Positions 24,631-51,512 of a stretch of 64,000 bases of DNA are shown in pieces; position 1 is the first letter of the stretch; each line of letters starts with the position of its first letter. The translations under genes and the position numbers were made by a program. Source of the stretch: Coriobacteriales bacterium (lineage in GTDB: Bacteria; Actinomycetota; Coriobacteriia; Coriobacteriales; UBA8131); NCBI GenBank assembly GCA_031277035.1, contig JAISLY010000004.1, forward strand, positions 26,980 to 90,979, given 5' to 3'. The notes under the pieces are model-generated. The model was not told the DNA's origin. It made no database searches and saw only the letters and a program-made list of their open reading frames with translations.

Positions 24631-24701
24631 GCGTAATGGGGCAGGCGGCATCCAGAACAGTGGAGGCGTGAGCGTAATGGGGCAGGCGGCATCCAGAACA
24701 G
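24631..24701. repeat. 41-bp-period duplication of the xdh translation start region
   Basis: gcgtaatggggcaggcggcatccagaacag occurs at 24631-24660 and 24672-24701. ggaggcgtgagcg is also present at the citrate synthase stop (24537) and at 24663. Confidence 0.9.
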
Positions 24702-26860
24702 CCTCGCACATCTCCCAAAGTGTGGTCAAGAAAGACCATGCGGAGAAGATGGGCGGCACTGCGCTTTATGTGGGAGACTACCCTCAACAGGACATGCTCC
24801 ACGGCGCCCTGGTGCGCTCGCCGCATCCCCATGCCCGCATACAGGACATCCGCTATCCCGAGCTTCCGGCGGGCTATTTTACCGTGGATGCGAGCGATGT
24901 GCCCGGTGAGAACATCGCGCACGTTGTGCTTGATGACTCTTTGGTGTTTGCGGACGGGGAGGTCTTTTTCGTCGGCGACGTGATTGCCATGATTGTCGGT
25001 CCCGACCGCCGAGAGGCCTACCGCCTGGCAAGGGCGACCGACGTTGTGTACGAGCTGCTGCCCGCCGTGTTGACAGTGGCTGACGCACAGGAGTTCTTCT
25101 TTGATTACCGCTATGGCTCCGGCGACGTGCAGGCGGCCTTTGCGGAGGCTGACCACGTGTATGAGGAGGAGTTTGAAACCGGCTATCAGGAGCAGGCGTA
25201 TCTGGAGCCGCAGGGCTTTATCGCCTGTTTTGCGCAGGACGGGGTTCTCACGCTGCACGGCAGCCTGCAATGCCCCTACTACGTAAAGGCCGCGGTCATG
25301 AAGGCGACCGGCCTTGGGTCAAAGGCCGTGCGCATCCAACAGGATCATACGGGCGGCGGCTTTGGCGGCAAGGAAGCGTTTCCCTCGATACTCGGCTGCC
25401 AGGTTGCGATTGCCGCGATGAAGGCCGCAGGGCGCCCCGTCCGTGTCGTTTTCGACCGTCGCGAGGACATGGAGTTTACGAGCAAGCGCCATCCCTCAAA
25501 GAGTCGGTATCGGGCCGCTGTGCGCGATGGGCGGGTGACGGCGCTTGACATCGACGTGCAGTTTGACTCGGGCGCCTTTACCACTCTGAGCCCTGTGGTG
25601 CTGCAACGCGGAATCATTGCGGCTCCGGGCGTCTATCGGGTGCCCAATCTCGCGGTACGGGGGCGTGGTGCTCGCACCAACAAAGTGCCGACCGGTGCGT
25701 TTCGTGGTTTTGGTGCGCCGCAGACCTTCTTTGCCATCGAGCTCATGATGGAGCATATCGCGCGCGATTTGGGCCTTGAGCCGCTGGACTTCAAGCGTGC
25801 GCAGCTGGTGGAGAGGGGCGACGCCACCACTACGGGCGGCCGCTACCACTTTGACGTGCCCCTGCCGCAGATGCTTGCCGACGTGCTCGTTGCAAGTGAC
25901 TACGAGCGCAAACGTGCCCGCTACGCCGAGGAGGCGCGCGTGCGCGCCAAAGGGGCGTGCGAGCGCTCTGAGGAGGCGCGCGCCCGCTTTCGACGGGGCA
26001 TCGGTCTTGCGCTCTGGTTTCATGGCGCCGGGTTTACGGGCAGTGGCGAACGCGACATCATCAAGGGTCGCGCCCGCATCCACAAGAGCGCTGCGGGGCA
26101 GGTGGAAGTGCTTGTCTCGCAATCCGACATCGGCCAGGGCATCAAAACGACGCTCGCCAAGATTGTCGCCTGTGAGCTTGGACTGCCCTATGAGGAGATT
26201 ATCATCAGCAATCCGGACACCGCGCGCGTACCCGACAGCGGCCCGACGGTCGCAAGCCGCAGCCTGATGATTGTCGGCGAGCTGTTGCGTCGTGCCGCCG
26301 TGCGGCTGCGCGAGGAATGGCGCGAGGGGCAGGAGCAGGATGTTGAGGAGCACTTCGTCGAACCCGACTTCCTCGTGCCCTTTGACCTGGAGACCTTCAG
26401 CGGGGATGCCTATCCCACCTATGCCTGGGGGGCGGCCGTCGTCGAGCTTCAGATTGACAGCCTGACTGGCACAAACGAGGTTCTTGGCTGCTGGGCGAGC
26501 CTTGATGTGGGCACGCCCATCGACCAGGCGATTGTGCTTGGACAGATGGAGGGCGGCGTTTTGCAGGGTCTGGGCTATGCCTCGATGGAGCAGATGGCGG
26601 CAGACGCGAGCGGGCGTATCCGCAACAATTCGTACAGCGACTACCTGATCCCAAGCGCCGTCGATGTGCCCGAACTCAAGGTGCAGATGCACGTTACCAA
26701 GTATCCGAATGGCCCCTATGGCGCCGCCGGTGCCGGAGAGGTGCCGCTCGTGGGCCTGCCGCCCGCCTATCTCGCCGCGGCCGAACAGGCTTTGGATGGT
26801 GTGCGGCTGAGTCACATTCCTCTGACTGCGGAAGAAACTTTGAAGGTGATTGTGCGATGA
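24677..26860 (+). CDS. Xanthine dehydrogenase-family molybdopterin-binding subunit
   Basis: Aldehyde oxidase/XDH a/b-hammerhead and Mo-binding domain pattern (GGGFGGKE, FRGFG, GAGE). ATG 24677 is preceded by GGAGG; the track start GTG 24668 is in frame. Confidence 0.88.
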   Translation: MGQAASRTASHISQSVVKKDHAEKMGGTALYVGDYPQQDMLHGALVRSPHPHARIQDIRYPELPAGYFTVDASDVPGENIAHVVLDDSLVFADGEVFFVGDVIAMIVGPDRREAYRLARATDVVYELLPAVLTVADAQEFFFDYRYGSGDVQAAFAEADHVYEEEFETGYQEQAYLEPQGFIACFAQDGVLTLHGSLQCPYYVKAAVMKATGLGSKAVRIQQDHTGGGFGGKEAFPSILGCQVAIAAMKAAGRPVRVVFDRREDMEFTSKRHPSKSRYRAAVRDGRVTALDIDVQFDSGAFTTLSPVVLQRGIIAAPGVYRVPNLAVRGRGARTNKVPTGAFRGFGAPQTFFAIELMMEHIARDLGLEPLDFKRAQLVERGDATTTGGRYHFDVPLPQMLADVLVASDYERKRARYAEEARVRAKGACERSEEARARFRRGIGLALWFHGAGFTGSGERDIIKGRARIHKSAAGQVEVLVSQSDIGQGIKTTLAKIVACELGLPYEEIIISNPDTARVPDSGPTVASRSLMIVGELLRRAAVRLREEWREGQEQDVEEHFVEPDFLVPFDLETFSGDAYPTYAWGAAVVELQIDSLTGTNEVLGCWASLDVGTPIDQAIVLGQMEGGVLQGLGYASMEQMAADASGRIRNNSYSDYLIPSAVDVPELKVQMHVTKYPNGPYGAAGAGEVPLVGLPPAYLAAAEQALDGVRLSHIPLTAEETLKVIVR

Positions 26861-28347
26861 AGACCACCGTCACCTTCCTGCTCAACGGCGAGACGGTCAC
26901 CTGGCGTGGAGACCCGGGCATGAAGCTGCTCGACCTGCTCCGCGACGAACTGGGCATGACCGAGGTAAAGTGCGGCTGTCGAGAAGGCGAGTGCGGCGCG
27001 TGCAGTGTGTTGCTGGACGGCGTGCTGGTGAACAGCTGCCTGGTAGCGGCAGGTCGCGTGGATGCCTGTGCGGTGACGACGCTTGCGGGCCTGCGGACGA
27101 CCGCGCGTTTTGCGGCGCTGGATAAGGCCTTTGCCCGGCACTCCGCCGTGCAGTGCGGCTATTGCATTCCCGGCATGATCCTGGCGGCCGAGGCGCTGCT
27201 TGTGCGCACGCCGCAGCCCAGCGAGGCCGAGATACGCGTGGCCATCAGCGGCAACCTCTGCCGCTGTACCGGCTACAACGCCATCGTCGCTGCGATACGG
27301 GAAGCCGCCGAGGAGCTGGCCGGGGCGGCGGCGGCGGGGGCGGGGGCGGATGCTGTGGCAGGCGATGCGGCGCGTGATGTGGTGGGCGCTGCGGTGGGCG
27401 CTGCGGTGGGCGATGTGGCGAGCGTCGCCCCCGTCGCCCCCGCCGCCGCCCCGGGCGCTGCGGCCCTGTGCCCCACCGCCCTGCCCGAAGCCCTTGAACT
27501 TCTGGCGGCAAAAAACCTCGTTCCCTGCGCCGGCGGCACCGATTTGCTCGCACATGAATACGCGCCGCCCGCCCCTGAGGGCAGCGAACTGCTCTTCGTG
27601 CATCGCATCGGCGAGCTCAAAGCGCTTCGTTGGGAGGGCGACGTACTGCGTATCGGCGCCGGTCTCACCTATGGCGAGCTGCTTGACAGGAGTCAGATTC
27701 CCGAGATTTTGCGTACCGCCATAGCCTCGATTGCGGCGCCCGCAGTGCGCAATGCCGGCACGATAGGCGGCAACCTCGCCAATGCCAGCCCCAAAGGCGA
27801 TGCCGCGCTGGCCTGTTTCGTGACGGACTGCACGCTGCGTCTGGTCAGTGTGCACGGTGAGCGGCTTGTGCCGATTGGGGCATTTTACCAGGGACGCGGG
27901 CGCACCGTGCGCAGACCCGACGAGCTGCTTGTCGAAATCCTGATGCCCACCCGCTGGACGCAGGAGGGTCGATGGACTTTTGAGAAGGTGGGCGGTCGCA
28001 AGGCGCTGGCAATCTCACGCGTCTCCTTCGCGGGGCTTGTCGCCTTCGACATCGACGCAAGCCCCCACGACACCGACGCAAGCCCCCACGGCACCGCGAA
28101 TACCGAGCCCACCATCACCCACCTCGCCACCGCATTTGGCGCCGTGGCGGATGTGGTGGTGCGCCGCCCCGAGATTGACGCGATGCTCATCGGCTGTGCG
28201 CTCACAGAGGCACAGACGCGCATCCCCGAATGGCTCGCCACCTGGGAGGCGGCTCTCCAGCCGGTTCGTGGCAGGGTCTCGGCAGAATACCGCAAGCAGG
28301 TTTGCCTCAACCTGGCTCGCGCTTTTATTGAGAGGAGTCTGTCGTGA
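26857..28347 (+). CDS. Fused [2Fe-2S] (CoxS-like) and FAD-binding (CoxM-like) XDH subunit joined by a Gly/Ala/Val linker
   Basis: CGCREGECGACSV and CGYCIPG...CRCTGY cluster motifs, a low-complexity linker, then AGGTDL and GTIGGNLANASP FAD-domain motifs. ATGA overlap with the upstream gene. Confidence 0.88.
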   Translation: MKTTVTFLLNGETVTWRGDPGMKLLDLLRDELGMTEVKCGCREGECGACSVLLDGVLVNSCLVAAGRVDACAVTTLAGLRTTARFAALDKAFARHSAVQCGYCIPGMILAAEALLVRTPQPSEAEIRVAISGNLCRCTGYNAIVAAIREAAEELAGAAAAGAGADAVAGDAARDVVGAAVGAAVGDVASVAPVAPAAAPGAAALCPTALPEALELLAAKNLVPCAGGTDLLAHEYAPPAPEGSELLFVHRIGELKALRWEGDVLRIGAGLTYGELLDRSQIPEILRTAIASIAAPAVRNAGTIGGNLANASPKGDAALACFVTDCTLRLVSVHGERLVPIGAFYQGRGRTVRRPDELLVEILMPTRWTQEGRWTFEKVGGRKALAISRVSFAGLVAFDIDASPHDTDASPHGTANTEPTITHLATAFGAVADVVVRRPEIDAMLIGCALTEAQTRIPEWLATWEAALQPVRGRVSAEYRKQVCLNLARAFIERSLS

Positions 28348-29819
28348 GCACTTCGTTTGTCTTGAAGGGCGACCTTCTCCAGAGCATCTCGCCAGGCGAA
28401 CTTTCCGTGATTGAGGACGGCTACCTTGTGTGCGTAGAGGGCCTTTCGGCAGGTGCCTTTAGCGAGCTACCCGAACGTTTTGCGGGCCTTGAGCTGCGCG
28501 ATTACACAGGCGCCCTCATTATTCCCGGCCTCGTGGATTTGCATACCCACGCGCCGCAGTACAGCTATCGCGGTACCGGCATGGACCTTGAGCTGCTCGA
28601 CTGGCTTCAGAACTACACCTATCCCGAGGAGGCGCGCTACCGCGACCTCAACTATGCAAAACCAGCCTACGAGGCCTTTGTCGCGCGGCTTGTGGCGGGA
28701 GCGACGACGCGCGTGGCGGTTTTTTCCACGGTGCATGTGCCAGCGACGCTGCTTCTCATGGACCTGTTGGAGCAAAGCGGGCTTGCCTCCTTTGTGGGCA
28801 AGGTGAACATGGACCGCAACGCCCCGGACACACTGCGCGAACCGAGCGCCGCGGCCGCCCTGCAAAGCACCGCCGAGTGGTTGGAGCAGACCGCTGCCCG
28901 CGGCTATCGCCGCACGCGGCCCATTCTCACGCCGCGCTTTATCCCCGCGTGTTCCGATGAACTGATGAGGGGCTTGGGAGCGATGCAGCAGGAATCGTCC
29001 TCTTTTGTCTCCGACACACAGGAATCGTCCCCTTCTTCCCCCTCTGCTGCCCCTCCTTCTGCCCCTCCTTCTGTTCCCGCTTCTGTCCCCGTCCAGAGTC
29101 ACCTCTCCGAGAACCTGCGCGAGATTGAATGGGTGCGCGAGTTGCGACCACAGGCGGCGAGCTATGCCGCGGCCTATTGCGATGACGGCCTGCTCGGTGG
29201 CCCGTCCTGCCCGACGATTATGGCGCACTGCGTGTACCTGGAGCCCGAGGAGGCCGCATTGCTCAAGGCCCGGGGCGTCTGGATTGCGCACTGTGCGGAG
29301 TCCAACACCAATCTGGCCAGCGGCATCGCCCCGGTGCGCAGCTATCTGACAGACGGGCTGCGCGTCGGGCTTGGCACCGATGTCGCGGGAGGCTCAGGTC
29401 TTTCGGTCTTTCGGGCGATGATGCACTCGATACAGGCCTCCAAGCTGCGGTGGCGCTTTGTTGATGAGCGCCTGGCGCCGCTTACCGCAGCCGAGGCCTT
29501 TTATCTGGCGACGCGAGGCGGCGGCAGCTTCTGGGGCAAGGTTGGCGGCTTTGAGGAGGGCTTTGAGTTCGACGCCGTTGTGCTTAACGAGCGCGCCCCG
29601 CAGAGTGCCGCCCCGCTTAACGAGTGCGCCCCGCAGAGTGCCGCCCCGCTTGCCGAGCGCGCCCCGCACGCCGCACGGCCCCTCAGCCCCGCCGAGCACT
29701 CTCCGCACGCCGCACGGCCCCTCAGCCCCGCCGAGCGCCTGGAGCGCCTGATCTATGCCGACGGCGATGCCTGCGTTGTGGAGAAGTATGTGGCCGGCGG
29801 CAGGGTCTGCGCAACATAA
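28344..29819 (+). CDS. guaD: Guanine deaminase (amidohydrolase superfamily) with two repeat insertions
   Basis: PGLVDLHTHAPQYSYRGTG...LLDWLQNYTYPEE, and the HCVYL and GTDVAGG metal ligands. Confidence 0.8.
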   Translation: MSTSFVLKGDLLQSISPGELSVIEDGYLVCVEGLSAGAFSELPERFAGLELRDYTGALIIPGLVDLHTHAPQYSYRGTGMDLELLDWLQNYTYPEEARYRDLNYAKPAYEAFVARLVAGATTRVAVFSTVHVPATLLLMDLLEQSGLASFVGKVNMDRNAPDTLREPSAAAALQSTAEWLEQTAARGYRRTRPILTPRFIPACSDELMRGLGAMQQESSSFVSDTQESSPSSPSAAPPSAPPSVPASVPVQSHLSENLREIEWVRELRPQAASYAAAYCDDGLLGGPSCPTIMAHCVYLEPEEAALLKARGVWIAHCAESNTNLASGIAPVRSYLTDGLRVGLGTDVAGGSGLSVFRAMMHSIQASKLRWRFVDERLAPLTAAEAFYLATRGGGSFWGKVGGFEEGFEFDAVVLNERAPQSAAPLNECAPQSAAPLAERAPHAARPLSPAEHSPHAARPLSPAERLERLIYADGDACVVEKYVAGGRVCAT

Positions 29820-29867
29820 GGCAATAGCGTAAAAAATTTACAGAGCATAAGGAGAAAGCATTACGGG

Positions 29868-29966
29868 GTACGCATCAGTCCTGCGCCTCGAAACGACAGA
29901 TGATGAGCGCAAGCTGCTCAAGGGCCTCCAGAAGTACGCATCAGCCCTGCGCCTCGAAACGACAGA
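29868..29966. repeat. 33-bp direct repeat x2 with 66-bp period (gtacgcatcagYcctgcgcctcgaaacgacaga)
   Basis: Copies at 29868-29900 and 29934-29966, one mismatch. Located upstream of the PLP-enzyme gene. Confidence 0.9.
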
Positions 29967-30079: not shown

Positions 30080-31555
30080 ATGATAGACCTCACCATCGAC
30101 AAGAACGGCCTGGCGCATAACATCAAAAAGGCACGCGAGACCGGCGTTGTCATCCCCACCATCGCGCAGATGCAACGCCCCGAGACCATCCCCGCAAAGA
30201 TACGCGAGCGGCTCAAAGGCGTTGGGCTTTGGGACGTAAACCCCTTAAACCTCTTTCGCATCACCTGGAAAAACGAACCTGCGGAGACCGGTGGCCTTTT
30301 TCAGAAAGCCCCCAACTACCTCGAGATACCCCCCGAGCTCTCGGGCGTCCCGGCGCGCATTATTGCGATGGTGGGCAAGTGGTTTCCGACCGGCTGCCAC
30401 AAGGTGGGCGCGTCGTTTGGCTGTCTGGCGCCGCGGCTGGTCACCGGTCAGTTTGACGTGGAGCGGCACAAGGCCGTCTGGCCTTCGACCGGCAACTATT
30501 GTCGCGGCGGGGCCTTTAACTCCAAACTCCTGGGGGCGCAGGGCGTGGCCATTCTGCCCGCAGAGATGAGCCGTGAGCGCTTTGAGTGGCTCCATTCCAT
30601 CGATGCGGAGGTCATTGCCACACCGGGCTGCGAATCCAACGTCAAGGAGATATTTGACAAGACCAACGAGCTGCGACGCGACCCCCACTACATGATTTTC
30701 AACCAGTTTGAGGAGATGGGCAATCCGCTGTGGCATTACAACGTTACGGGCAATGCGTTAGCCGAACTGTTTGAGGCCATCAAGCGACCCGAGGACCGCT
30801 TCGTCGGGGCCTGCTTTACCTCGGGCTCGGCTGGTACGCTTGCCGCCGGCGACCGTCTCAAAGAGCTCTATCCGCAGCTCAAACTGGCCGTGGGCGAGGC
30901 CCTGCAATGCCCGACAATCCTTACCAACGGCTATGGCGGCCACCATATCGAGGGCATCGGCGATAAGCATATCCCCTGGATACACAATGTGCGCACCACC
31001 GACATGGTCATCGACATCGACGATAGCGACACGCTGCACCTGCTGCGACTCTTTAATACCTCCAAGGGCAAAGCCTATCTTCGGCGCGAACTTGGGTATG
31101 ACGACGAAGTCATCGAGCGCTTTACCTGGCTTGGCATCTCAGGGATTGCCAACATCCTGTGCTGCATCAAGATGGCGCGTTACTACGAGCTCGGCGAGCG
31201 CGACGTGGTGGCCACGGTGCTCACCGATTCGGCCGAGATGTACCAGAGTCGCATTCAGGAGATGAAGGCCGAACTTGGCCCGTACAGCGAGCGCCTTGCC
31301 TTTGCCGACCATGAGCGGCGTCTGCTTGGCCAGGGAACTGCGAATATGGCCGAGCTGGACTATTACGGGCGCAAACGCGTGCACAACCTCAAGTATTACA
31401 CCTGGGTTGAGCAGCAGGGCAAAACCGAGCGCGAGCTGAACGCACTGTGGTACGACCCCGAAGGCACCTGGGACAGGGTACACGCGCAGGCTGCCGAGCT
31501 TGACAAGCTCATCGGCGCCTTTAACGACAAGGTGGGCGTGCTGGCAGCACTGTAA
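30080..31555 (+). CDS. Fold-type II (Trp-synthase-beta/cysteine-synthase-like) PLP-dependent enzyme, function unknown
   Basis: Candidate PLP-lysine context FPTGCHKVGASF and a Gly-rich phosphate loop FTSGSAGT. 491 aa with a long C-terminal extension. AAAGGAG RBS. Confidence 0.7.
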   Translation: MIDLTIDKNGLAHNIKKARETGVVIPTIAQMQRPETIPAKIRERLKGVGLWDVNPLNLFRITWKNEPAETGGLFQKAPNYLEIPPELSGVPARIIAMVGKWFPTGCHKVGASFGCLAPRLVTGQFDVERHKAVWPSTGNYCRGGAFNSKLLGAQGVAILPAEMSRERFEWLHSIDAEVIATPGCESNVKEIFDKTNELRRDPHYMIFNQFEEMGNPLWHYNVTGNALAELFEAIKRPEDRFVGACFTSGSAGTLAAGDRLKELYPQLKLAVGEALQCPTILTNGYGGHHIEGIGDKHIPWIHNVRTTDMVIDIDDSDTLHLLRLFNTSKGKAYLRRELGYDDEVIERFTWLGISGIANILCCIKMARYYELGERDVVATVLTDSAEMYQSRIQEMKAELGPYSERLAFADHERRLLGQGTANMAELDYYGRKRVHNLKYYTWVEQQGKTERELNALWYDPEGTWDRVHAQAAELDKLIGAFNDKVGVLAAL

Positions 31556-31661: not shown

Positions 31662-31689
31662 TGCCCGGTAGGCAAAACCGGGAGGCACG

Positions 31690-32394
31690 ATGGACAAGCA
31701 GTCCCGCAAGCGGGAATTCAAACAGCTCAGACCCCTGCTCGACGCGATTGCGGCAGGGATTGCGGGACAGTTCGGCCCCAATTGCGAAGTCGTTGTCCAT
31801 GACATCACCGATGGCCTGGAAAAGACCGTCGCCATCATCTACAACGGCCAGGTGAGTGGACGCAAAATTGGCGACGGAGCCAGCGAGACCGTCCTTGAGG
31901 CGCTCAGGAACAACGACATACGCGACCGCTATGGCTACTTTACCAACACCCGGGACGGGCGGATGCTCAAATCCACGACCATCAACATCCGGGGTACCGA
32001 CGGCACCGTCCTCGCCGCCATCTGCATCAATTTTGACATCAGCGACCTTGCCCTTGCCGCCCGTTCGCTCAACGAGTTTCTGGCTGCCGAGGAGCCGCCC
32101 ACACCGCTTGGGGCCGAGGCGATTTCGAGCAATGTCAACGAACTGCTCGACCAGCTTATCGAGGAGTCGCATCGCTACATCGGCAAGCCCATTGCGGCGA
32201 TGACCCGCCAGGACAAGACCGAGGCCATTCGCTATCTGGACCGCAAAGGCGCACTGCTCATCAAGAAAAGCTCGGAGCGCATCGCCCGGTATTACGGCAT
32301 CTCAAAATATACGCTCTACAACTATCTGGGCGAGACGGCAAAAGAGAAAGAAGCGCCGACGCCCGCCTTTGGTCACGGCCCGAATGACGGATAA
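31690..32394 (+). CDS. YheO-like transcriptional regulator (PAS-like N-domain + C-terminal HTH)
   Basis: FGPNCEVVVHDIT...IYNGQVSGRKIGD and a C-terminal ARYYGISKYTLYNYL helix-turn-helix. Confidence 0.75.
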   Translation: MDKQSRKREFKQLRPLLDAIAAGIAGQFGPNCEVVVHDITDGLEKTVAIIYNGQVSGRKIGDGASETVLEALRNNDIRDRYGYFTNTRDGRMLKSTTINIRGTDGTVLAAICINFDISDLALAARSLNEFLAAEEPPTPLGAEAISSNVNELLDQLIEESHRYIGKPIAAMTRQDKTEAIRYLDRKGALLIKKSSERIARYYGISKYTLYNYLGETAKEKEAPTPAFGHGPNDG

Positions 32395-36412: not shown

Positions 36413-37458
36413 GCACGAGGAGGGACAGACGCCGTGTCGTCGTCGCGCTCGGCGGTAACGCGCTCGGCGACAATCTTGACGAGCAGATGCGCGCGGCCCA
36501 GATTGCGGCAAATGCCATTGTCGAGATCGTCGAGGCGGACTGGGAGCTCGTCCTCGTGCATGGCAACGGCCCGCAGGTGGGCATGATTGAGACCGCCTTT
36601 GAAGTCGCCGCCCGCGTCGAAGCCGACCGAGTCCGCGCCGAGGCCCGCGCCGAGCCCCGCGCCGAGCCCGCGCCCACGCCCACCGGCGCCACGCCCGCGC
36701 CCACGTCAGCGCCCCGGCCGCAGACCGCCTTCTCCGTCCTGCCGATGTCGGTCTGCGTCGCGCTCAGCCAGGGCTACATCGGCTACGACCTGCAAAATGT
36801 CCTGCGTCGCACCTTCGAAGTGCGGGGCCTTTCCACGCCGGTGGCGACGATTATCACCCAGGTGCTCGTCGACCCCAACGACCCGGCCTTTCACAACCCC
36901 GCCAAGCCGATTGGCGGCTTTATGAGCGAAGCAGAGGCCGCTCATCTGCGCTCAGAAGGCGTTGCCGTGATGGAGGACAGCGGACGCGGCTGGCGGCGCG
37001 TCGTCGCCTCGCCCGAGCCCGTGGACATTCTTGAGGCCAAGACGGTACAGGCGATGCTTGCGGCGGGGCAGGTACCTATCGCCTGCGGCGGCGGCGGCAT
37101 CCCGGTCGCGCTGATTGAGGGGCGCTATCATGGACAGACAGCGGTTGTGGACAAGGACCTTGCCGCGGCCAAGCTGGCCGAGTGCATCGACGCCGACCTT
37201 CTCATCATCCTGACCGCTGTCGAGCAGGTTTACCTTGACTTTGGGACCTCGTCACAACGCGCGATTGACCGGATGGATGTCGAGGAAGCCGAGCGCCTGC
37301 TTCTTGCGGGGCAGTTTGCGAAAGGCTCGATGGAGCCGAAGATTGAGGCAGCCGTGCGCTTTGTGCGGTCGGGCAGAGGCCGCGAGGTCGTAATCGCTGA
37401 TCTCAGGCAGGCACGGGCCGCTATCGAAGGCGCGGCGGGCACGCGGATTGTCGCGTAG
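36409..37458 (+). CDS. arcC: Carbamate kinase with a repeat insertion
   Basis: VVALGGNALG, HGNGPQVG, GGGGIPV and VVDKDLAAA motifs. Confidence 0.9.
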   Translation: MSTRRDRRRVVVALGGNALGDNLDEQMRAAQIAANAIVEIVEADWELVLVHGNGPQVGMIETAFEVAARVEADRVRAEARAEPRAEPAPTPTGATPAPTSAPRPQTAFSVLPMSVCVALSQGYIGYDLQNVLRRTFEVRGLSTPVATIITQVLVDPNDPAFHNPAKPIGGFMSEAEAAHLRSEGVAVMEDSGRGWRRVVASPEPVDILEAKTVQAMLAAGQVPIACGGGGIPVALIEGRYHGQTAVVDKDLAAAKLAECIDADLLIILTAVEQVYLDFGTSSQRAIDRMDVEEAERLLLAGQFAKGSMEPKIEAAVRFVRSGRGREVVIADLRQARAAIEGAAGTRIVA

Positions 37459-37663: not shown

Positions 37664-40600
37664 ATGAGCGAAATCATGCGGCCGATGTCTTTCAGCGAGC
37701 TGATGGAGCATGCGCTGAGCGACTACGAACACTCAGGCGCTCTGTTCGGCGTACGGCCGGACAAGTTCTATCGCGCCGACGGACGAGAAGCAAGCCCCCG
37801 CACCCTCTTTGGCCTGCCGCTGGCCACACCCATCGGCCCTGCCGCCGGCCCAGGCTCGCAACTGGCCGGCAACATCCTTGCCGCCTACCTTGCAGGCGCG
37901 CGTTTCATCGAGCTCAAGACCGTGCAAACGATGGACGGCGATGAGCTGCGCGCCGCGGTGGCGCGTCCCTGCATCAATGCGACCGACGAGGGCTACAACG
38001 TCGAATGGTCCACCGAACTGACGGTGCAACAGGCGCTGGAGCAATATATCTACGCCTGGCTTGCGGTGTCTGCGTTTGGCATTGAACTCGACCTTCCCGC
38101 CGGCGTCATCTTCAATATGAGCGTGGGTTACAGCCTTGAGGGCATCCAGTCAACAAAGGTGGATTCCTTTTTGGAGGGCATGAAGAACGCCTCTGAGACA
38201 GCGGCCTGGGCTGAAGGCATCGACTGGCTGACGCGCAACATCGGGCGCTTCTCACGTCTGCGGCAGGCCGATGTGCAGGCCATCACGCCGCATATCTCAA
38301 ACAGCGTAACCCTCTCGACCCTGCATGGCTGTCCGGCTGATGAGATCGAGCGCATCGCGCAGTATCTTTTGACGGAAAAACGCCTGCACACCTCTGTGAA
38401 GTGCAACCCGACCCTGCTTGGCTATGACACGGCCCGTGCGCTGCTTGACGGTCTGGGCTATGACTATGTGGACTTTGACGAGCATCACTTTGTTGAGGAT
38501 CTGCAATTCGACGACGCGGTGGCGATGTTCGGTCGGCTCATGGCGCTCAGCGCGGCGTCGGGCCAGGCCACCGGTGCCAAGATAACGAACACCTTCCCCG
38601 TGCGGATACTGCGCGGGGAGCTGCCCGGCGAGGAGATGTATATGAGCGGGCGGGCCCTCTTCCCGCTCTCGATTACCGTGGCTGCCCGGCTTGCCGCCGC
38701 GACAGGCGGGCGTCTGCCCATTTCCTATTCGGGCGGTGCCGACGCCTTTAATCTCACGGCAATCCTTGAGACGGGCATCTTTCCGGTGACCATGGCGACG
38801 ACCCTGCTCAAGCCCGGCGGCTACGAACGGCTGCATCAACTGGCAGGGATTGCGACGGCATGCGTCCCCACCGTGGCCCGGCCTGGCAGCTCCGAGACCC
38901 CGGACACCCCGGGTCGGTCTGGCAGCTCCGAGAACCCGGACAGCCCAGGCCGGCCTGGCAGCTCCGCGTCCGACACCTCGCTCGACGTTGCGGCCCTTGA
39001 GGCCCTCGCAATCCGCGTGACACAGGCCTCTGGCGACGACGTGCTCTCCCGTCATCGCAAGGCGTATCGGGCCACAGGCACCGCCGCCGCAACTTCCGCA
39101 GCTTCCACCACCACCGCAACTTCCACAACTTCGCCCGCATCGCCGCACGCACCTTCCGCAACTTCCGCAGCTTCCACCATCACCACCGCAACTTCCGCAG
39201 CTTCTGCGGCCGCGCACGCAACTGCGCACACGACGTCGCGCAAGTCGGCCGAGCCGCTGCCTCTGTTCGACTGCGCCCAGGCGCCCTGCGCACATCCTGC
39301 AGCGAGCGGCGGTTGTCCCATCGAGCAACAGATTGGCGCCTATCTTGAGCAGGTTGCGAAGGGCGACTGGGCGCAGGCCTTCTCCATCATCGTCAACGAC
39401 AACGTCCTGCCCTCGATAACGGGCGCCATCTGTGACCACCAGTGCCAGAATCGCTGTACGCGCCTGGACTGCGACGACCCGCTCCTCATCCGGGCCGCCA
39501 AGAAGGCCGCCGCCGCCGAGGCTCAGTCCGCCCATATCGCCGCCCTTGCAGCTGGCTCTGCCCCCGCCCTGCAAAGCAGCGCGCGCGTACTCGTCATCGG
39601 CGCCGGCCCGGCCGGCCTGGCGGCGGCGGCCTATCTGCGCCGCAACGGTGTGGCGGTTGAGGTGCGTGAACAGCGTGCGCGTCCGCTGGGCGCTGTTGCT
39701 GCAACCATCCCCTCCTTTCGCATCAGCGACGAGGAACTGGCGCTGGATGCGGCCCTTATCGAGGCCTGGGGTGTCAGCGTTGAGTATGGTGCCAATCCCG
39801 TCTACGACCTTGCGGCGCTCAGGGAGCACTACGACTTCGTCATTATCGCCACCGGTGCTCAGGGGCAGGGACGAAGCGATCTTGTGCCCGATGGCGAGCG
39901 GGTCTTTGACGCGCTGGACTTCCTTGAACGCTCCAAAGCCACCGGCCTTACGCTTGAGCTTGGTCGACGCGTGGCGGTCATTGGCGGCGGCGATGTGGCC
40001 ATGGACTGCGCGCGCGCGGCCGCTCGCAATGTGGGCGTTTTGGAGGCCGTGGTTGTCTATCGACGCACCCGCGCCCAGATGCCGGCCCAGCGCGAGGAGC
40101 TCGAGGCGGCCTGGGCCGAGGGCGTGCGCTGTATCGAACTGCACGCGCCACGCGCCTTTGACAAGGGCATACTGAGCTGCGATGTCATGGAACTGGGCGC
40201 GGTGGATGCCAGCGGACGTCGCGGAATCATACCCTGTGGACAAAGGGCCGAGCTTGCCTTTGACACCGTGATCAACGCGGTTGGCGCCGTCGTGGACTAT
40301 GAGCCGATGGTCGCCTGCGGCATCGAGTTTGAGGAGAACGGCCGTCCGCGCCTGAGCGCGACCAACGAAAGTTCCCTTCCCGGCGTCTATCTGGCTGGCG
40401 ATTGCAAGGCGGGGCCCAAGACGGTCATCAAAGCGATGGCCGACGCCAAGCTCGTCGCACGCGACATTCTCGCGCGTCTCGCACTGAGTTCCGATTTTCG
40501 CGCATTTGAACTTGAGGCCTGTCGCGAGGAACTTCTCACGAAGAAAGGTGTCCTCAGGGCCGCTGCCTCAGGAGATGCCCGCCTGGATGCCCGCCGTTGT

Positions 40601-41029
40601 CTGGGATGCGGAGCGGTCTGCGAGATATGTGTGGACGTCTGCCCCAACCGTGCGAATACGGTTCAGGCCGGGCAGATTCTTCACCTCGACCGGCTGTGTA
40701 ACGAGTGCGGCAACTGCGGCGTCTTTTGCCCGACGGGCGGGGATCCCTATCGGGACAAACTCACGCTGTTTTCCACGGAGGAGGATTTTTCTCACAGCGA
40801 TAACCGCGGCTTCTTGCCTCTGGCCCACGGAGGGTATAAGCTGCGCCTTGAAGATGGCCGGATTATCGAAGCAGGCCTTGATGATCCTGCCGTGCCCTCA
40901 TCGTTTGTCGTGACGATACGCGCCGCGCTCAGCCACGCAGAAACAGGGCATACGGGAGGCCTGCATACCGCCGAGGGACCTGCGGGAAGTCTACACGTCG
41001 GCACGACACGGACAGGAGGCCTGGGATGA
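37664..41029 (+). CDS. ygfK: YgfK-family oxidoreductase (DPD-like domain + FAD/NAD(P) domain + 4Fe-4S), so-called putative selenate reductase subunit
   Basis: N-terminus MSEIMRPMSFSELMEHAL, VIGAGPAGLAAA dinucleotide fold, C-terminal Cys clusters CxxCxxxCxxC and CNECGNCGVFCP. Two long low-complexity insertions. Confidence 0.85.
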   Translation: MSEIMRPMSFSELMEHALSDYEHSGALFGVRPDKFYRADGREASPRTLFGLPLATPIGPAAGPGSQLAGNILAAYLAGARFIELKTVQTMDGDELRAAVARPCINATDEGYNVEWSTELTVQQALEQYIYAWLAVSAFGIELDLPAGVIFNMSVGYSLEGIQSTKVDSFLEGMKNASETAAWAEGIDWLTRNIGRFSRLRQADVQAITPHISNSVTLSTLHGCPADEIERIAQYLLTEKRLHTSVKCNPTLLGYDTARALLDGLGYDYVDFDEHHFVEDLQFDDAVAMFGRLMALSAASGQATGAKITNTFPVRILRGELPGEEMYMSGRALFPLSITVAARLAAATGGRLPISYSGGADAFNLTAILETGIFPVTMATTLLKPGGYERLHQLAGIATACVPTVARPGSSETPDTPGRSGSSENPDSPGRPGSSASDTSLDVAALEALAIRVTQASGDDVLSRHRKAYRATGTAAATSAASTTTATSTTSPASPHAPSATSAASTITTATSAASAAAHATAHTTSRKSAEPLPLFDCAQAPCAHPAASGGCPIEQQIGAYLEQVAKGDWAQAFSIIVNDNVLPSITGAICDHQCQNRCTRLDCDDPLLIRAAKKAAAAEAQSAHIAALAAGSAPALQSSARVLVIGAGPAGLAAAAYLRRNGVAVEVREQRARPLGAVAATIPSFRISDEELALDAALIEAWGVSVEYGANPVYDLAALREHYDFVIIATGAQGQGRSDLVPDGERVFDALDFLERSKATGLTLELGRRVAVIGGGDVAMDCARAAARNVGVLEAVVVYRRTRAQMPAQREELEAAWAEGVRCIELHAPRAFDKGILSCDVMELGAVDASGRRGIIPCGQRAELAFDTVINAVGAVVDYEPMVACGIEFEENGRPRLSATNESSLPGVYLAGDCKAGPKTVIKAMADAKLVARDILARLALSSDFRAFELEACREELLTKKGVLRAAASGDARLDARRCLGCGAVCEICVDVCPNRANTVQAGQILHLDRLCNECGNCGVFCPTGGDPYRDKLTLFSTEEDFSHSDNRGFLPLAHGGYKLRLEDGRIIEAGLDDPAVPSSFVVTIRAALSHAETGHTGGLHTAEGPAGSLHVGTTRTGGLG

Positions 41030-42366
41030 GCACCTTGATCACCAACGCGACCCTCATCACACGCGACGCGCAGGACACGGTCATACCCGACGGAGGTGGA
41101 GCCCTCGCCTTTGAAGGAGCGCTCATCACCGATGTCGGTTCTGCGGCTGAGCTGGAGGCGCGCTATCCCGAGGCCGAGCGCATCGACGCCCGGGGACGTC
41201 TGGTCATGCCCGGCCTTATCAACACCCATATGCACTACTACTCCACCTTTGCGCGCGGCATCGACTTTGGCTCTCGGCCCGCGACCACCTTTGGCGAGGT
41301 GCTCAGTGGGCTGTGGTGGCGGCTCGATAAGATGCTGACGCTTGAGGACGTGTATTACAGCGCCGTGGGCCCGATGATTGACTGTGTGCGCAATGGCGTG
41401 ACAACGGTCATCGACCACCATGCAAGCCCGAGTTCCGTACGCGACAGCCTGCTGGTCATTGCAAAGGCTGCGCAGCGGATTGGCATACGTTCCAACCTCT
41501 GCTACGAGGTAAGTGATCGGGATGGCGAGGAGGTCGCGAAGGCGGGCATTGCAGAAAACGCCGCATTCGTGCGCAGCTGTCAGCAGGCCAACGACGACAT
41601 GCTGCGAGGGCTTATGGGCGTGCACGCACAGATGACCATCTCGCAGCCTACGATGGACGCGCTTGTCGCTGAGGCCGAGAGTCTGGGCGTCGGCTATCAC
41701 ATCCACGCGGCCGAGGGTATCGAGGACGTGGTGAACTCGCTTGGCACATACGGGCGCCGCGTTATCGAGCGGCTCTCCGATAACGGCATCCTCAACGAAC
41801 GCTCGATTGTCGTGCACTGCGTGCAGGTGCTCGACGAGGAGATTGAGCTGCTCGCGCACAGCGGGGTGGCGGTTATCAACAATCCGGAGAGCAACATGAG
41901 CAATGCCGTGGGGGCCTCGCCGGTTCTTAAAATGCTCGCTGCCGGCGTGCTTGTGGGCATGGGCACCGACGGCTACTGCACCGACATGACCGAGAGTCTG
42001 CGCGGCGTGCATGCGCTGGTCAAACACGAAGCGCGTATCCCCTCGGTGGGTTGGGCCGAGCCGCCCCGCATGCTCTTTGAGAACAACCGCACAATCATAA
42101 ACCGCCTGCTCGTCAACGGCCATACCGGAGTGCTTGAGCCGGGGGCGTACGCAGACCTCATCATCGTCGATTACGAGGCACCCACACCGGTGAGCGCAAA
42201 GACCATAAACAGTCACATCCTGTTTGGCGTCATGGGACGCTCTGTGGCCACAACCATCATAAACGGGCGTATCGTGATGCGCGAACGCGAGCTGGTCGAT
42301 ATTGACGAGGAGAAGATCATGGCGGTCTCGCGCGAGCAGGCTGCCCGTCTGTGGAGCAGGATCTGA
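41026..42366 (+). CDS. ssnA: SsnA-family amidohydrolase
   Basis: PGLINTHMHYYSTFARG, HAAEG, and HCV...GTDG metal ligands. Confidence 0.85.
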   Translation: MSTLITNATLITRDAQDTVIPDGGGALAFEGALITDVGSAAELEARYPEAERIDARGRLVMPGLINTHMHYYSTFARGIDFGSRPATTFGEVLSGLWWRLDKMLTLEDVYYSAVGPMIDCVRNGVTTVIDHHASPSSVRDSLLVIAKAAQRIGIRSNLCYEVSDRDGEEVAKAGIAENAAFVRSCQQANDDMLRGLMGVHAQMTISQPTMDALVAEAESLGVGYHIHAAEGIEDVVNSLGTYGRRVIERLSDNGILNERSIVVHCVQVLDEEIELLAHSGVAVINNPESNMSNAVGASPVLKMLAAGVLVGMGTDGYCTDMTESLRGVHALVKHEARIPSVGWAEPPRMLFENNRTIINRLLVNGHTGVLEPGAYADLIIVDYEAPTPVSAKTINSHILFGVMGRSVATTIINGRIVMRERELVDIDEEKIMAVSREQAARLWSRI

Positions 42367-42368
42367 GC

Positions 42369-45161
42369 ATGAAAATCACGGTCAACGGCGTAGCCTGTGA
42401 CATACCGGAGGGACGATCGCTCCTGCGCTTTCTGCGTGACGAGCTGCGCCTGACTTCGGTCAAGGACGGATGCAGCGCGGGCGCCTGCGGAAGCTGCACG
42501 GTGCTGATCAACGGGGTGGCCGCGAAGAGTTGCGTGAAGGCTGCCAAGCATCTGCAAGACGCCGAGATTCTGACCGTTGAGGGCCTGAGTGAGCGCGAGC
42601 GCGAGCTCTACGTGCGTGCCTTTGGCGAGGCCGGCGCCGTTCAGTGTGGCTTTTGTATCCCCGGGATGGTGCTCGCCGCCAAGGGCCTGCTCGACGCGAA
42701 TCCTGCGCCCACCCGCGTGGAGGTCAAGCAGGCCATCGACGGCAATATCTGTCGCTGCACCGGTTATGTGCGTATCGAAAAGGCCATTCTGCTCGCCGCC
42801 AGCTTTCTGCGGGAGGGCGGCGCGGCGGGCGGCGCGGCGGGCGCGGCTTTGGGGGAGGCGGCGGGCGCGGCTTTGGGGGAGGCGGCGGGTGCCGTGTCGG
42901 GTGCGGCTTTGGGCGGAGCGCCACGCAGCGGCGTTGGCGCCGATGTGCCCCGGCCCGACGTGCGCGAAAAAGTGCTCGGCACGGGCATCTTTGGCGATGA
43001 CCTCTTCTTTGAAGGCATGCTCTACGCCAGGGCGCTCAGGGCACCTGCGCCGCGCGCCCTCATCCGCGCCATCCATACCGGGCAAGCCGAGCAGCATCCC
43101 GACTGTGTGCGCATTCTCACCTCAGGCGACGTGCCGCACAACAAGATTGGCCATCTGAAGCAGGATTGGGACGTGATGATCCCCGTGGGGAGTGAGACGC
43201 GCTACATCGGCGATGCCCTGGCGCTTGTGGTCAGCACGCGAGCAGAAAGCCTCGACGCCATCATCAGGCTCATCGAGCTGGACTACGAGGAACTGCCTCC
43301 CGTGACCAGCCCGGCCGACGCCCTGCGTGACGGGGCGCCGCTCATTCATGAGGACGGCAACGTCATGGCTCGAGAACATCTGCGCCGTGGCGACGTGGAT
43401 GCGGCAATCGAGGCAGCCGCGCACGTTGTGACCCGCAGCTATTACACGCCGCACAACGACCATGCCTTCATGGAGCCCGAATGCGCCGTGGCCGTACCCA
43501 CCTTTGATGAGGAGGGCAGGCGCGGGCTGCGTCTGTATACGGGCGGGCAGAGTGTCTACGACGACCGGCGCGAGACGGCTACCATGCTCAAGATGCCGCT
43601 CGAAGACATCCACGTCATCTCAAACCTTGTTGGCGGCGGCTTTGGCGGCAAGGAGGATATGAGCGTGCAGCATCACGCCGCTCTTGCGGCCTGGCACACC
43701 GGGCGGCCGGTGAAGGTGAAATTCAGCAGGCAGGAAAGCATCGAGTATCACACGAAGCGCCACGCGATGGAGATGGAGTTCACGACCGCCTGCGATGCGG
43801 ATGGGTATCTCACGGCGATGAAAGCCTCAATCATTGCCGATACCGGGGCCTACGCTTCGCTGGGCGGCCCGGTGCTGCAACGCGCCTGCACACATGCCGC
43901 CGGGCCCTACCAGCTGCACAATGTGGACATCCTGGGGATTGCGGTCTATACGAACAACGTGGTCAGCGGGGCATATCGCGGTTTTGGCGTGACCCAGAGC
44001 TGCTTTGCGATGGAAAGCAATCTCAACCTGCTGGCCGAACAGGTGGGCATCTCTGCCTGGGAGATACGCTATCGCAATGCCATCCGCCCCGGCCAGGTGC
44101 TGCCCAACGGGCAGATTGCCGAGGAGAACACGGCGATGGTAGAAACGCTCCAGGCGCTGCGCGAGACCTTTGAATCATCGCCGCGTGCGGGCATCGCCTG
44201 CGGCTTTAAGAACAGCGGCAAGGGCATCGGGCTTGTGGACACCGGGCGCTGCGTGCTCTCGGTTGAGGGCGGTATGGTGCACGTGCGCACGTCGGCAGCC
44301 TGTATGGGGCAGGGCATTGCCACGGTCTGCATGCAAATGGTCAGCGAGCTGACAGGCCTGCCCCCCTCCCTGATTGTGCACGAGGCGCCCGACACCGTGC
44401 GTACGCCCGATGCCGGAACCTCGACCGCCTCACGCCAGACGGTGCTCACGGGCGAGGCCACCCGCCGCGCCGCGCTCGCGCTGTGCCGCGCGCTTGAAGC
44501 GGCGCAGGGAGCGGGCGCGAATGCGGGTGCGGGTGCGCCCGGCGGTGCGCAGGGAGCGGGTGCGGCTGCGGCTACGGGTGCGCAGGTTGCGGGCGGTGCG
44601 TCCGGCGGTGCGCAGGTTGCGAGTGCGGGTGCGAATGATCCCACCGAAGCCCTTGCCGCTCTCGAAGGCCAGGAGTTCTCCGGCGAGTTCTCACCGGTCA
44701 CTGACCCGATGTCCTCCCCCGCGCCCAATCCCGTCAGCCACGTCTCCTACAGCTATGCGACGCAGGTGGTGCTGCTTGACGAGGAAGGCCGCCTGGAGAA
44801 GGTCATCGCCGCCTACGATGTGGGTACGCCCGTAAACCCCTCCTCCTGCGCCGGGCAGATTGAGGGCGGTATCGTCATGGGCCTTGGCTTTGCGCTCACC
44901 GAGGACTTTCCCATCGAGGGCGGTCGTCCCAAGGTGCGCTACAAAACGCTCGGCCTGCCGCGTGCGACGCAGGTGCCGCCCATCGAGGTGCGCTTCGTAA
45001 CGATTGATGCGGCGCGGCGTCTGCCCTATGCCTTTGGCGCGAAGGGTGTTGGCGAACTGTGCCTCATCCCCACTTCGCCTGCCGTTGCGCATGCCTATTA
45101 CCGACTGGATGGACAGTTCCGCACCAGACTTCCCTTGCGAGACACGTATTATGGGAAGTGA
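42369..45161 (+). CDS. xdhD: XdhD-like molybdenum hydroxylase, fused [2Fe-2S] + molybdopterin-binding domains
   Basis: CSAGACGSCTV and CGFCIPG...CRCTGY, then GGGFGGKED, YRGFG and GAKGVGE. Two Gly/Ala insertions. Confidence 0.85.
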   Translation: MKITVNGVACDIPEGRSLLRFLRDELRLTSVKDGCSAGACGSCTVLINGVAAKSCVKAAKHLQDAEILTVEGLSERERELYVRAFGEAGAVQCGFCIPGMVLAAKGLLDANPAPTRVEVKQAIDGNICRCTGYVRIEKAILLAASFLREGGAAGGAAGAALGEAAGAALGEAAGAVSGAALGGAPRSGVGADVPRPDVREKVLGTGIFGDDLFFEGMLYARALRAPAPRALIRAIHTGQAEQHPDCVRILTSGDVPHNKIGHLKQDWDVMIPVGSETRYIGDALALVVSTRAESLDAIIRLIELDYEELPPVTSPADALRDGAPLIHEDGNVMAREHLRRGDVDAAIEAAAHVVTRSYYTPHNDHAFMEPECAVAVPTFDEEGRRGLRLYTGGQSVYDDRRETATMLKMPLEDIHVISNLVGGGFGGKEDMSVQHHAALAAWHTGRPVKVKFSRQESIEYHTKRHAMEMEFTTACDADGYLTAMKASIIADTGAYASLGGPVLQRACTHAAGPYQLHNVDILGIAVYTNNVVSGAYRGFGVTQSCFAMESNLNLLAEQVGISAWEIRYRNAIRPGQVLPNGQIAEENTAMVETLQALRETFESSPRAGIACGFKNSGKGIGLVDTGRCVLSVEGGMVHVRTSAACMGQGIATVCMQMVSELTGLPPSLIVHEAPDTVRTPDAGTSTASRQTVLTGEATRRAALALCRALEAAQGAGANAGAGAPGGAQGAGAAAATGAQVAGGASGGAQVASAGANDPTEALAALEGQEFSGEFSPVTDPMSSPAPNPVSHVSYSYATQVVLLDEEGRLEKVIAAYDVGTPVNPSSCAGQIEGGIVMGLGFALTEDFPIEGGRPKVRYKTLGLPRATQVPPIEVRFVTIDAARRLPYAFGAKGVGELCLIPTSPAVAHAYYRLDGQFRTRLPLRDTYYGK

Positions 45162-51510: not shown

Positions 51511-51512
51511 GG

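Follow-up and report, generated by a model that had tools for sequence, protein, structure and literature searches.

A predicted purine catabolic supercluster for reductive 2,8-dioxopurine uricolysis in a Coriobacteriia genome

Gene content and layout of the block

We analyzed a 64,000-nucleotide stretch (hereafter, the window; all coordinates refer to it) of the genome of a Coriobacteriales bacterium (GenBank assembly GCA_031277035.1, contig JAISLY010000004.1, positions 26,980 to 90,979 of the forward strand), and focused on a block of genes predicted to act in purine and urate breakdown. The block comprises 12 intact genes at 24677-45161, all on the plus strand and in one direction, between the genes for citrate synthase and purH (Table 1). 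It is highly probable that the block is a supercluster for purine catabolism operating by the published reductive 2,8-dioxopurine pathway of uricolysis, as suggested by the protein families it encodes. The gene order, the intactness of the genes and their family membership are established.

Table 1 Features of the window. Values after model names are bit scores, given with the curated cut-off where there is one; percentages are identities to the E. coli protein. XDH, xanthine dehydrogenase; FAD, flavin adenine dinucleotide; PLP, pyridoxal phosphate; DOPDH, 2,8-dioxopurine dehydrogenase; DOPOR, 2,8-dioxopurine oxidoreductase; aa, amino acids.
Feature	Coordinates	Strand	Basis
Citrate synthase (upstream border)	23172..24545
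Mo-binding subunit, XDH family; putative xanthine/hypoxanthine dehydrogenase large subunit	24677..26860	+	Pfam Ald_Xan_dh_C, MoCoBD_1, MoCoBD_2
Fused [2Fe-2S] and FAD-binding subunit	26857..28347	+	Pfam Fer2, Fer2_2, FAD_binding_5, CO_deh_flav_C; 4-bp overlap with upstream gene
Guanine deaminase-like amidohydrolase (GuaD-like)	28344..29819	+	Reciprocal best hit of E. coli GuaD, 33%
PALP491, uncharacterised 491-aa fold-type II PLP enzyme, distantly CysK/CBS-like	30080..31555	+	Pfam PALP only
YheO-family transcription regulator, probable cluster regulator	31690..32394	+	Pfam PAS_6 110.7 and HTH_22 67.3, both above gathering score
YgeX, putative 2,3-diaminopropionate ammonia-lyase	32405..33673	+	TIGR03528 570 vs 532; reciprocal best hit, 47%
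YgeY, M20 amidohydrolase, predicted to cleave the remaining ureido group	33843..35222	+	TIGR03526 640 vs 322; reciprocal best hit, 64%
YgeW, knotted carbamoyltransferase, predicted ureido phosphorolysis to carbamoyl phosphate	35219..36412	+	TIGR03316 701 vs 500; reciprocal best hit, 63%
Carbamate kinase (YqeA/ArcC), predicted to convert carbamoyl phosphate to ATP	36409..37458	+	NF009007 301 vs 266; reciprocal best hit YqeA, 52%
YgfK (DOPOR), putative NAD(P)H:2,8-dioxopurine oxidoreductase	37664..41029	+	TIGR03315 1123 vs 835; reciprocal best hit of E. coli YgfK
SsnA, amidohydrolase predicted to open the six-membered ring of reduced 2,8-dioxopurine	41026..42366	+	NF005540 596 vs 444, TIGR03314 568 vs 456; reciprocal best hit, 34%
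XdhAC-type molybdenum hydroxylase, putative DOPDH	42369..45161	+	TIGR03311 1232 vs 830
purH (downstream border)	45184..46854
Mo-cofactor maturation mini-cluster, 13-16 kb downstream of the block: ThiF/MoeB-like, MocA-like cytidylyltransferase, XdhC-family chaperone	58401..61668	-, +, +	Pfam ThiF; NTP_transf_3; XdhC_C and XdhC_CoxI; NCBIfam matches all below cut-off

Five junctions within the block are 4-bp ATGA or GTGA stop/start overlaps (at 26857, 28344, 35219, 36409 and 41026). The first-pass annotation had described twelve same-strand genes with these overlaps, and the open reading frame (ORF) list and our reading of the junctions confirmed both. SsnA and the last gene are separated by 2 nt if the latter starts at 42369, or overlap by 16 nt with an alternative GTG start at 42351, and the larger intergenic gaps in the block measure 260, 134, 169 and 205 nt. 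Shine-Dalgarno-like sequences lie 5' of the ATG codons at 24677 (GGAGG; an alternative GTG start lies at 24668), 30080, 31690, 32405 (AAGGAG, for YgeX), 33843 (GGAGG, for YgeY, whose ORF opens with a TTG at 33831) and 45184. The guanine-cytosine (GC) content at third codon positions (GC3) is 0.73-0.80 for all cluster genes, the level of the host genes, which together with the translational coupling implied by the five overlaps argues for an established and functional locus. A recent horizontal transfer of PALP491 and YheO, considered for the lower GC at 30-32 kb, was rejected as their GC3 of 0.75-0.76 equals that of host genes. The scan for promoter-like and terminator-like sites returned counts at or below the shuffle expectation, thus the scan gives no basis for setting operon boundaries.

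In-frame tandem repeats, together with Ala/Pro/Ser/Thr/Gly inserts of low complexity, were found in 8 of the 12 cluster genes, spread over 25924-44633 (for example at 32408-32475, 35115-35193, 36627-36714, 38878-39204, 42815-42889 and 44507-44633), and PALP491, YheO, YgeW and SsnA are free of them. The YgeX N-terminus has a fourfold REPI(N/S)T repeat, and YgeY a low-complexity C-terminal tail. In YgfK the N-terminal and C-terminal halves are joined by a low-complexity linker of ~120 aa, located where Butyricicoccus porcorum has two genes for this protein, one of them coding for the N-terminal half alone. Two further tandem-repeat arrays are intergenic, one C-rich in the ygeX/ygeY gap (33698-33812) and one in the arcC/ygfK gap (37435-37639), the latter with 39-40-nt units of which the first duplicates the arcC stop region. 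A riboswitch or other structured RNA in these repeats was ruled out, given that Rfam returned only two tRNAs in the window and no match for either array, and that the predicted fold of the arcC/ygfK array was no better than those of shuffled sequences (z = -1.25).

Predicted placement in the reductive uricolytic pathway

The proteins were placed in families using NCBIfam models with curated cut-offs and BLASTP in both directions against the corresponding region of Escherichia coli K-12. YgeX, YgeY, YgeW, carbamate kinase, YgfK, SsnA and the GuaD-like protein are reciprocal best hits of their E. coli counterparts at 33-64% identity, with 47% and 40% for the two halves of YgfK. Liu et al. (bioRxiv 10.1101/2025.04.24.650524) used an operational rule of at least four of seven proteins above identity thresholds to the Clostridium sporogenes proteins, and six of these seven families are present here by curated hidden Markov model thresholds; among them is SsnA, which served as the pathway marker for Li et al. 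(PMC12507026). Six families above curated thresholds, within 12 co-directional genes assignable to one pathway, are far beyond what chance would give.

The whole route was reconstituted in 2025 by Li et al. (bioRxiv 10.1101/2025.05.19.654654; PMC12507026) and Liu et al. (bioRxiv 10.1101/2025.04.24.650524), and the pathway and its enzyme order rest on this in vitro work backed by mutants. Urate is converted to 2,8-dioxopurine by XdhD-YgfM or XdhAC (step 1), which is reduced by YgfK and opened by SsnA to ureidomethylhydantoin (steps 2-3), from which HyuA forms 2,3-diureidopropionate (step 4); YgeW with carbamate kinase, which yields ATP, and YgeY then lead to diaminopropionate, and YgeX to pyruvate (steps 5-7). 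The commentary by Percudani names three points as left open: in what order the ureido groups are cleaved, the stereochemistry, and which electron donor XdhAC uses. The first-pass annotation had held most of the enzymatic steps to be unassigned and the block to be a candidate for a poorly described system; with the steps assigned in 2025, both statements are out of date. The block is a further member of a known system, and its only undescribed parts are PALP491 and the unlinked hydantoinase step.

The last gene of the block, previously annotated as xdhD type, was reassigned. It encodes a protein of 936 aa with [2Fe-2S] and Mo-binding domains and without an FAD domain. On TIGR03313, the XdhD/YgfN family model, the protein scores 227 bits, below the cut-off of 1102 (E. 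coli XdhD scores 2123), its identity to E. coli XdhD is 26%, and it is nearer to XdhA. No separate YgfM gene was found in the 64 kb by tblastn, the sole match being the FAD domain of the gene at 26857-28347; E. coli YgfM itself scores 490 bits on TIGR03312. Orthology with E. coli XdhD was therefore ruled out, and the homology comparison with E. coli, which held for the seven reciprocal best hits, fails for XdhD. For comparison we collected two sets of 80 loci, one from genomes with PALP491 as the seed and one from metagenomes with YgeY as the seed, annotated by BLASTP against proteins of the window and of E. coli and two clostridial reference proteins. XdhAC genes adjoining ssnA and ygfK in two of the compared loci (L003 and L150) score 1215-1409 on TIGR03311 and are of the same family as the last gene. 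The TIGR03311 score, the low TIGR03313 score and these linked genes together identify the last gene as XdhAC type, that is, as a member of the clostridial XdhAC/DOPDH family and a putative urate reductase. The C. sporogenes XdhAC has been purified and is a selenium-dependent 2,8-dioxopurine dehydrogenase, and the C. difficile "XdhD" is merely 25.6% identical to the E. coli protein (Li et al. PMC12507026).

A route through the block can be proposed by transfer of every substrate and activity from the enzymes of E. coli, C. sporogenes and C. difficile. The GuaD-like enzyme would deaminate guanine to xanthine, and the FAD-containing two-subunit XDH-like enzyme would oxidize xanthine or hypoxanthine to urate. 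The XdhAC-type molybdoenzyme would then reduce urate at C6 to 2,8-dioxopurine, YgfK would reduce the purine ring with NAD(P)H, and SsnA would open the six-membered ring of the reduced 2,8-dioxopurine. A hydantoinase encoded outside the window would open the five-membered ring to give 2,3-diureidopropionate, from which YgeW and carbamate kinase would turn one ureido group into ATP, YgeY would remove the second, and YgeX would convert diaminopropionate to pyruvate and ammonia. In this scheme PALP491 would be a lower-pathway accessory and YheO the likely local regulator.

Several observations weigh against this assignment. The 64 kb hold no HyuA homologue, which leaves one published step without a gene here, and tblastn using proteins of E. 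coli and of B. porcorum as queries found no purine or urate permease in them, in line with the earlier annotation. The C. sporogenes DOPDH requires the selenium-cofactor trait (selD, yqeB and yqeC), and tblastn found no yqeC in the 64 kb and just a weak XdhC-family gene as YqeB-like match; no SelD (AIRS-type) domain was seen among the subset of window ORFs put through Pfam. The XDH-like pair falls below every XDH equivalog cut-off (pucD, xdhB, XdhA and xdhA small subunit), with pucD the best NCBIfam match of the large subunit (362 bits, cut-off 784) and a TIGR02963 score of 220 bits (cut-off 467) for the fused subunit, which contains a low-complexity linker. The GuaD-like protein scores 317 on TIGR02967 (cut-off 375), with the match split into two stretches by the low-complexity inserts, of which the protein has two. 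Such inserts in part account for the shortfall of the pair and of the GuaD-like protein, and the sub-threshold scores make the substrates of these enzymes the least certain of the block. The description of this end as a classical XDH and guanine deaminase agrees with the domains, with the motifs of the XDH-like large subunit (see below) and with the GuaD reciprocal best hit. GuaD-like genes of related clusters share 37-49% identity with the window gene.

The mini-cluster downstream of the block may serve the two hydroxylases by maturing their molybdenum cofactor. In its XdhC-family protein, which is 30% identical to part of YqeB, the Pfam domain XdhC_C precedes XdhC_CoxI, and the gene for this protein is followed by one for a 564-aa LuxR-type regulator, with which the mini-cluster spans 58401-63423.

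The additional PLP enzyme, the XDH-like pair and the hydantoinase step

PALP491, which has N- and C-terminal extensions, was noticed in the first-pass annotation as an extra, inserted PLP enzyme. Its NCBIfam cysK score is 86 (cut-off 351) and its best sequence match in PDB is CysK (E 7e-19). The AlphaFold2 model (predicted local distance difference test score of 72) had CysK, beta-cyanoalanine synthase and cystathionine beta-synthase (CBS) as top Foldseek matches, at 19-25% identity. By these score and identity criteria PALP491 forms a family separate from the cysteine synthases, with the same fold as modeled. The substrate loop, STGN, lines up with its CysK counterpart, and, as read from the sequence, the candidate PLP lysine sits in an invariant GCHKVG motif and a SGSAGT stretch resembles the glycine-rich loop of CysK. 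Longer homologues were dismissed as informative domain fusions, being internal duplications or assembly chimeras.

The enzyme is present as first described but not particular to the window, as it recurs in at least 590 species, most of them Clostridia: relatives are encoded in 590 of 600 candidate stretches from species-representative genomes. Among the best 80 relatives, 79 are labeled Clostridia or Bacillota and one Alistipes, and Oscillospiraceae proteins are 75-79% identical to the window protein. In 88 loci with PALP491 the neighbors include YheO (42 loci), YgeY (42), YgeW (38), ArcC (34) and YgeX (3). A ThrC-like PLP gene follows PALP491 in 61 of the 88, at a median gap of 12 bp (NF006050, 328 bits; for example at 10001-12789 in L001 and 9974-12779 in L034), and this 413-aa PALP gene of Clostridia, considered as a possible YgeX, was excluded as such by its ThrC-like score. 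YgeX is found in 2 of 42 loci with YgeY and PALP491 versus 54 of 76 with YgeY but not PALP491 (Fisher p = 3e-13, a value that ignores relatedness and seeding bias). Three loci (L025, L034 and L035) contain arcC, ygeW, ygeY, yheO, PALP491, thrC-like, hyuA, ygfK and ssnA without ygeX, and in B. porcorum PALP491 and thrC-like genes accompany ssnA, a permease gene, hyuA, xdhAC and the gene for the YgfK N-terminal half. These patterns suggest that the PALP491/ThrC-like pair occupies the YgeX slot in many Clostridia.

PALP491 and YgeX without a ThrC-like gene occur together in the window, in L091 and apparently in L016, a short contig that samples little beyond both genes. L091 (63-11886, GC 35%) is the sole other such locus within a long cluster among the compared loci, with yheO, PALP491, ygeX, a Glu/Leu-dehydrogenase-like gene, ygeY, ygeW, arcC and guaD; its 5' part contains moaB-like, moaC-like, moaA-like and MOSC-like genes, these labels and that of the dehydrogenase being read from translations. 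We found no mention of the PALP491 enzyme in the searched literature on the urate and purine pathway. The "YgeX" marker of Li et al. (PMC12507026) is PF00291, which cannot separate the three PLP families, so published neighborhood surveys would count PALP491 or the ThrC-like protein as YgeX.

Two accounts of PALP491 were weighed. It is quite possible that PALP491 is an unrelated gene of amino-acid metabolism, for example cysteine-synthase-like, that merely neighbors the cluster: in Christensenellaceae-like loci its only neighbors are housekeeping genes, its 65-79% identity across families is typical of a central enzyme, and gaps of 260 and 134 nt flank it in the window. Against this, it is repeatedly linked to ygeY, ygeW, arcC and yheO, and sometimes to ssnA, hyuA and xdhAC, in many genera, and its place in the window is within the cluster, with guaD on one side and yheO on the other. 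The other account, which we consider somewhat less likely, is that it works in the pathway, as an alternative or additional terminal enzyme on diaminopropionate or by beta-elimination or beta-replacement on a mono-ureido intermediate whose alpha-amino group is free (albizziin), and replaces YgeX together with the ThrC-like protein in Clostridia. The linkage across the 88 loci, the anti-correlation with YgeX beside ygeY and the three loci with all lower-pathway genes bar YgeX fit this account, as do the CysK-type motifs and a modeled fold matching that of beta-substituted-alanine synthases. It is weakened by the ~20 loci in which PALP491 is alone among housekeeping genes, by the co-occurrence with YgeX and without a ThrC-like gene in the window, by the phylogenetic non-independence of loci that were seeded on PALP491 itself, and by the pathways of C. 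sporogenes and of E. coli, which run without it. It is rather doubtful, although worth stating, that PALP491 (with the ThrC-like protein in Clostridia) is an unrecognized part of purine degradation that provides an exit from the diureidopropionate/diaminopropionate end, substituting for or preceding YgeX. If so, the window would be a hybrid that keeps both YgeX and PALP491 in a cluster without hyuA.

The first two genes putatively encode an XDH-family hydroxylase, with xanthine or hypoxanthine as a substrate that is among the least certain assignments. The large subunit contains the motifs GGGFGGKE, FRGFG and GAGE in alignment with E. coli XdhA and XdhD, which we take to carry the three catalytic residues of XDH (Glu, Arg and Glu), and the fused FeS-FAD (iron-sulfur and FAD) subunit has the architecture of Rhodobacter capsulatus XdhA. 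We consider it unlikely that the pair is instead another purine or heteroaromatic hydroxylase, or that its FeS-FAD subunit is the electron partner of the FAD-less XdhAC. The scores far under the XDH cut-offs would allow this, the pair has no close homologue in any of 165 related loci, and the literature leaves open which electron donor XdhAC uses physiologically (Percudani commentary); but the presumed catalytic residues are all in place, translational coupling links the two genes with each other and with guaD, and XDH genes also lie beside uricolytic genes in E. coli and several clostridial clusters.

The hydantoinase was searched for by tblastn with HyuA of E. coli and of B. porcorum (TIGR02033, 549 bits), and the matches, none better than E 8e-4, were short stretches of the SsnA and GuaD-like amidohydrolases. 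No HyuA lies within 10 kb in 17 of the 22 loci that hold SsnA, YgfK and YgeY (e.g. L088, L116, L122, L145, L150 and L164), and some clusters without HyuA are compact and have no unassigned gene. The earlier statement that hyuA is missing is thus correct for the window, but not a distinguishing feature of it. Most simply, the hydantoinase gene would lie elsewhere in the genome. PALP491 as a replacement of HyuA was ruled out by 14 loci in which both occur, and the L091 gene between ygeX and ygeY was rejected as a hydantoinase by its Glu/Leu dehydrogenase-like appearance in the translation, read by eye. That the cluster is complete without HyuA, the ring being opened by SsnA acting twice or by the GuaD-like protein, or the SsnA product differing in this lineage, is improbable: it would agree with the compact and fully assigned clusters among the 17 loci, with the urate-induced sets of three species, which share five genes only and not hyuA, and with the two ring-opened products of SsnA in vitro, but C. 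sporogenes hyuA mutants are blocked, both reconstitutions required HyuA, absence from a 10-kb flank or the 64-kb window is not absence from the genome, and the GuaD-like protein and E. coli GuaD are each other's best hit.

Related clusters, host lineage and implications

The commonest layout in the 80 metagenomic loci is a YheO-YgeX-YgeY-YgeW-ArcC core, also the commonest gene order in this YgeY-seeded set, with SsnA, YgfK and XdhAC. YheO occurs in 34 of the 80 and YgeV in 2. By these counts a YheO regulator and the lack of a linked hyuA are ordinary in related clusters, and YheO in place of YgeV, listed in the first-pass annotation as a difference from E. coli, was verified by the PAS_6 and HTH_22 domains and by the lack of a ygeV homologue in the 64 kb (tblastn) but is not special to the window. 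A sigma-70-like site (TTGACA-17-CATACT) lies 5' of yheO at 31633-31661, in a promoter scan that was overall at chance level. A permease was found in 15 of the 80 loci. Genes for a Bmp-family lipoprotein and an ABC transporter were observed near PALP491 or arcC in other loci (L001, 3743-5002; L021; L070; L078), and may serve in the uptake of purines or urate; no such genes lie in the window. Their homologues Closa_2468-2471 in Lacrimispora saccharolytica are induced 9- to 12-fold by urate in published data.

The E. coli K-12 cluster (ygeV-ygeWXY-hyuA-yqeABC-mocA-ygfK-ssnA-ygfM-xdhD, with xdhABC and guaD; Li et al. 2025, PMC12507026) resembles the block in that XDH and guanine deaminase genes adjoin the uricolytic genes in both. 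The first-pass claim of the full E. coli gene set does not hold, as hyuA, ygfM, yqeB, yqeC and an adjacent mocA are lacking, along with a permease. The putative urate reductase of the window is of XdhAC type and that of E. coli is XdhD-YgfM, the regulator is YheO rather than the sigma-54 type YgeV, the XDH-like enzyme consists of two subunits, one of them a fused FeS-FAD protein, instead of XdhABC, and the window has the extra PLP enzyme. The C. sporogenes cluster (xdhAC for DOPDH, ygfK for DOPOR, ssnA, hyuA, ygeW, ygeY, ygeX, pbuX and yqeC; bioRxiv 10.1101/2025.04.24.650524) shares the downstream enzymes with the window, and its XdhAC, described with FeS and molybdenum cofactor domains and as not using NAD(P)H, resembles the FAD-less last gene. 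Unlike it, the window lacks hyuA, a permease and yqeC, and adds the XDH-like pair, guaD, YheO and PALP491.

In Lacrimispora saccharolytica WM1 the cluster Closa_1029-1039 has YheO, ygeX, ygeY, ygeW, carbamate kinase, ssnA and ygfK as in the window, and its YheO gene is induced 22-fold by urate, according to the rows listed in the supplement of Liu et al. 2022. Unlike the window, this cluster has a dihydropyrimidinase (hyuA) and a permease, and the listed rows include no PALP491-like or xdhAC gene. In an Oscillospiraceae variant (for example Dysosmobacter, L001 and L034), arcC-ygeW-ygeY are divergent from yheO-PALP491-thrC-like; the PALP491 proteins are 71-79% identical to that of the window and have the same link to YheO and the lower-pathway genes, whereas the variant has the ThrC-like partner and usually no YgeX, and in the window YgeX is retained and a ThrC-like gene is absent.

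The host lineage was assessed from housekeeping proteins. The best named relatives of HflX are from Coriobacteriales and Coriobacteriia metagenome-assembled genomes (70-75% identity), followed by Gordonibacter and Rubneribacter (66-67%), in agreement with the actinobacterial background suggested at first; PurH has a best match of 72% and is 61% identical to an Eggerthella-type protein. A high-GC Oscillospiraceae host, considered on account of the PALP491 identities, was ruled out by HflX and PurH, which point to Coriobacteriia. In the collections searched, the best full-length match of YgeY is 75% identical and one partial contig reaches 83%. These values support a poorly sampled Coriobacteriia lineage as the likely host, with no close relative in those collections. 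Collinsella aerofaciens ATCC 25986 is a urate-consuming member of the Coriobacteriia with a urate-induced cluster, according to published data in which C. aerofaciens left no uric acid and the tested Eggerthellaceae strains Eggerthella lenta DSM 2243 and Slackia exigua left ~3.1-3.2 units. The window host is nearer to the Coriobacteriales metagenome-assembled genomes and Eggerthellaceae than to C. aerofaciens.

Other genes of the window were noted in passing. A gene with AlbA_2/Schlafen, HATPase_c_4 and HTH domains (49872-51570, minus strand) abuts tRNA-Gly(CCC) at 51577-51651; its GC3 is 0.40 versus 0.68-0.81 for every other window gene, and it is probably horizontally acquired DNA. A pyruvate formate-lyase-like glycyl radical enzyme of 816 aa is encoded at 14605-17055 on the minus strand, and the one neighboring ORF scanned (16636-17430) had no Pfam match, with no activase seen. 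A signaling group at 51817-58376 comprises an FHA-domain protein, a PP2C phosphatase, a trypsin-like protease-FHA fusion, an unknown ORF and a Ser/Thr kinase.

The block would add an uncultured lineage of the Coriobacteriia to the known range of the gut uricolytic pathway, which was solved recently, with genes predicted for guanine deamination, xanthine oxidation, urate reduction, ring cleavage and an ATP-yielding carbamate kinase in one co-directional block. This may be of use in metagenome annotation and in the choice of urate-degrading taxa. It also points to two loose ends for the pathway at large, namely that most sampled clusters are without a linked hydantoinase, and that a conserved PLP enzyme appears in the place of YgeX in many Clostridia. 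Resolving either would refine, and not overturn, a pathway of medical interest for hyperuricaemia and gout.

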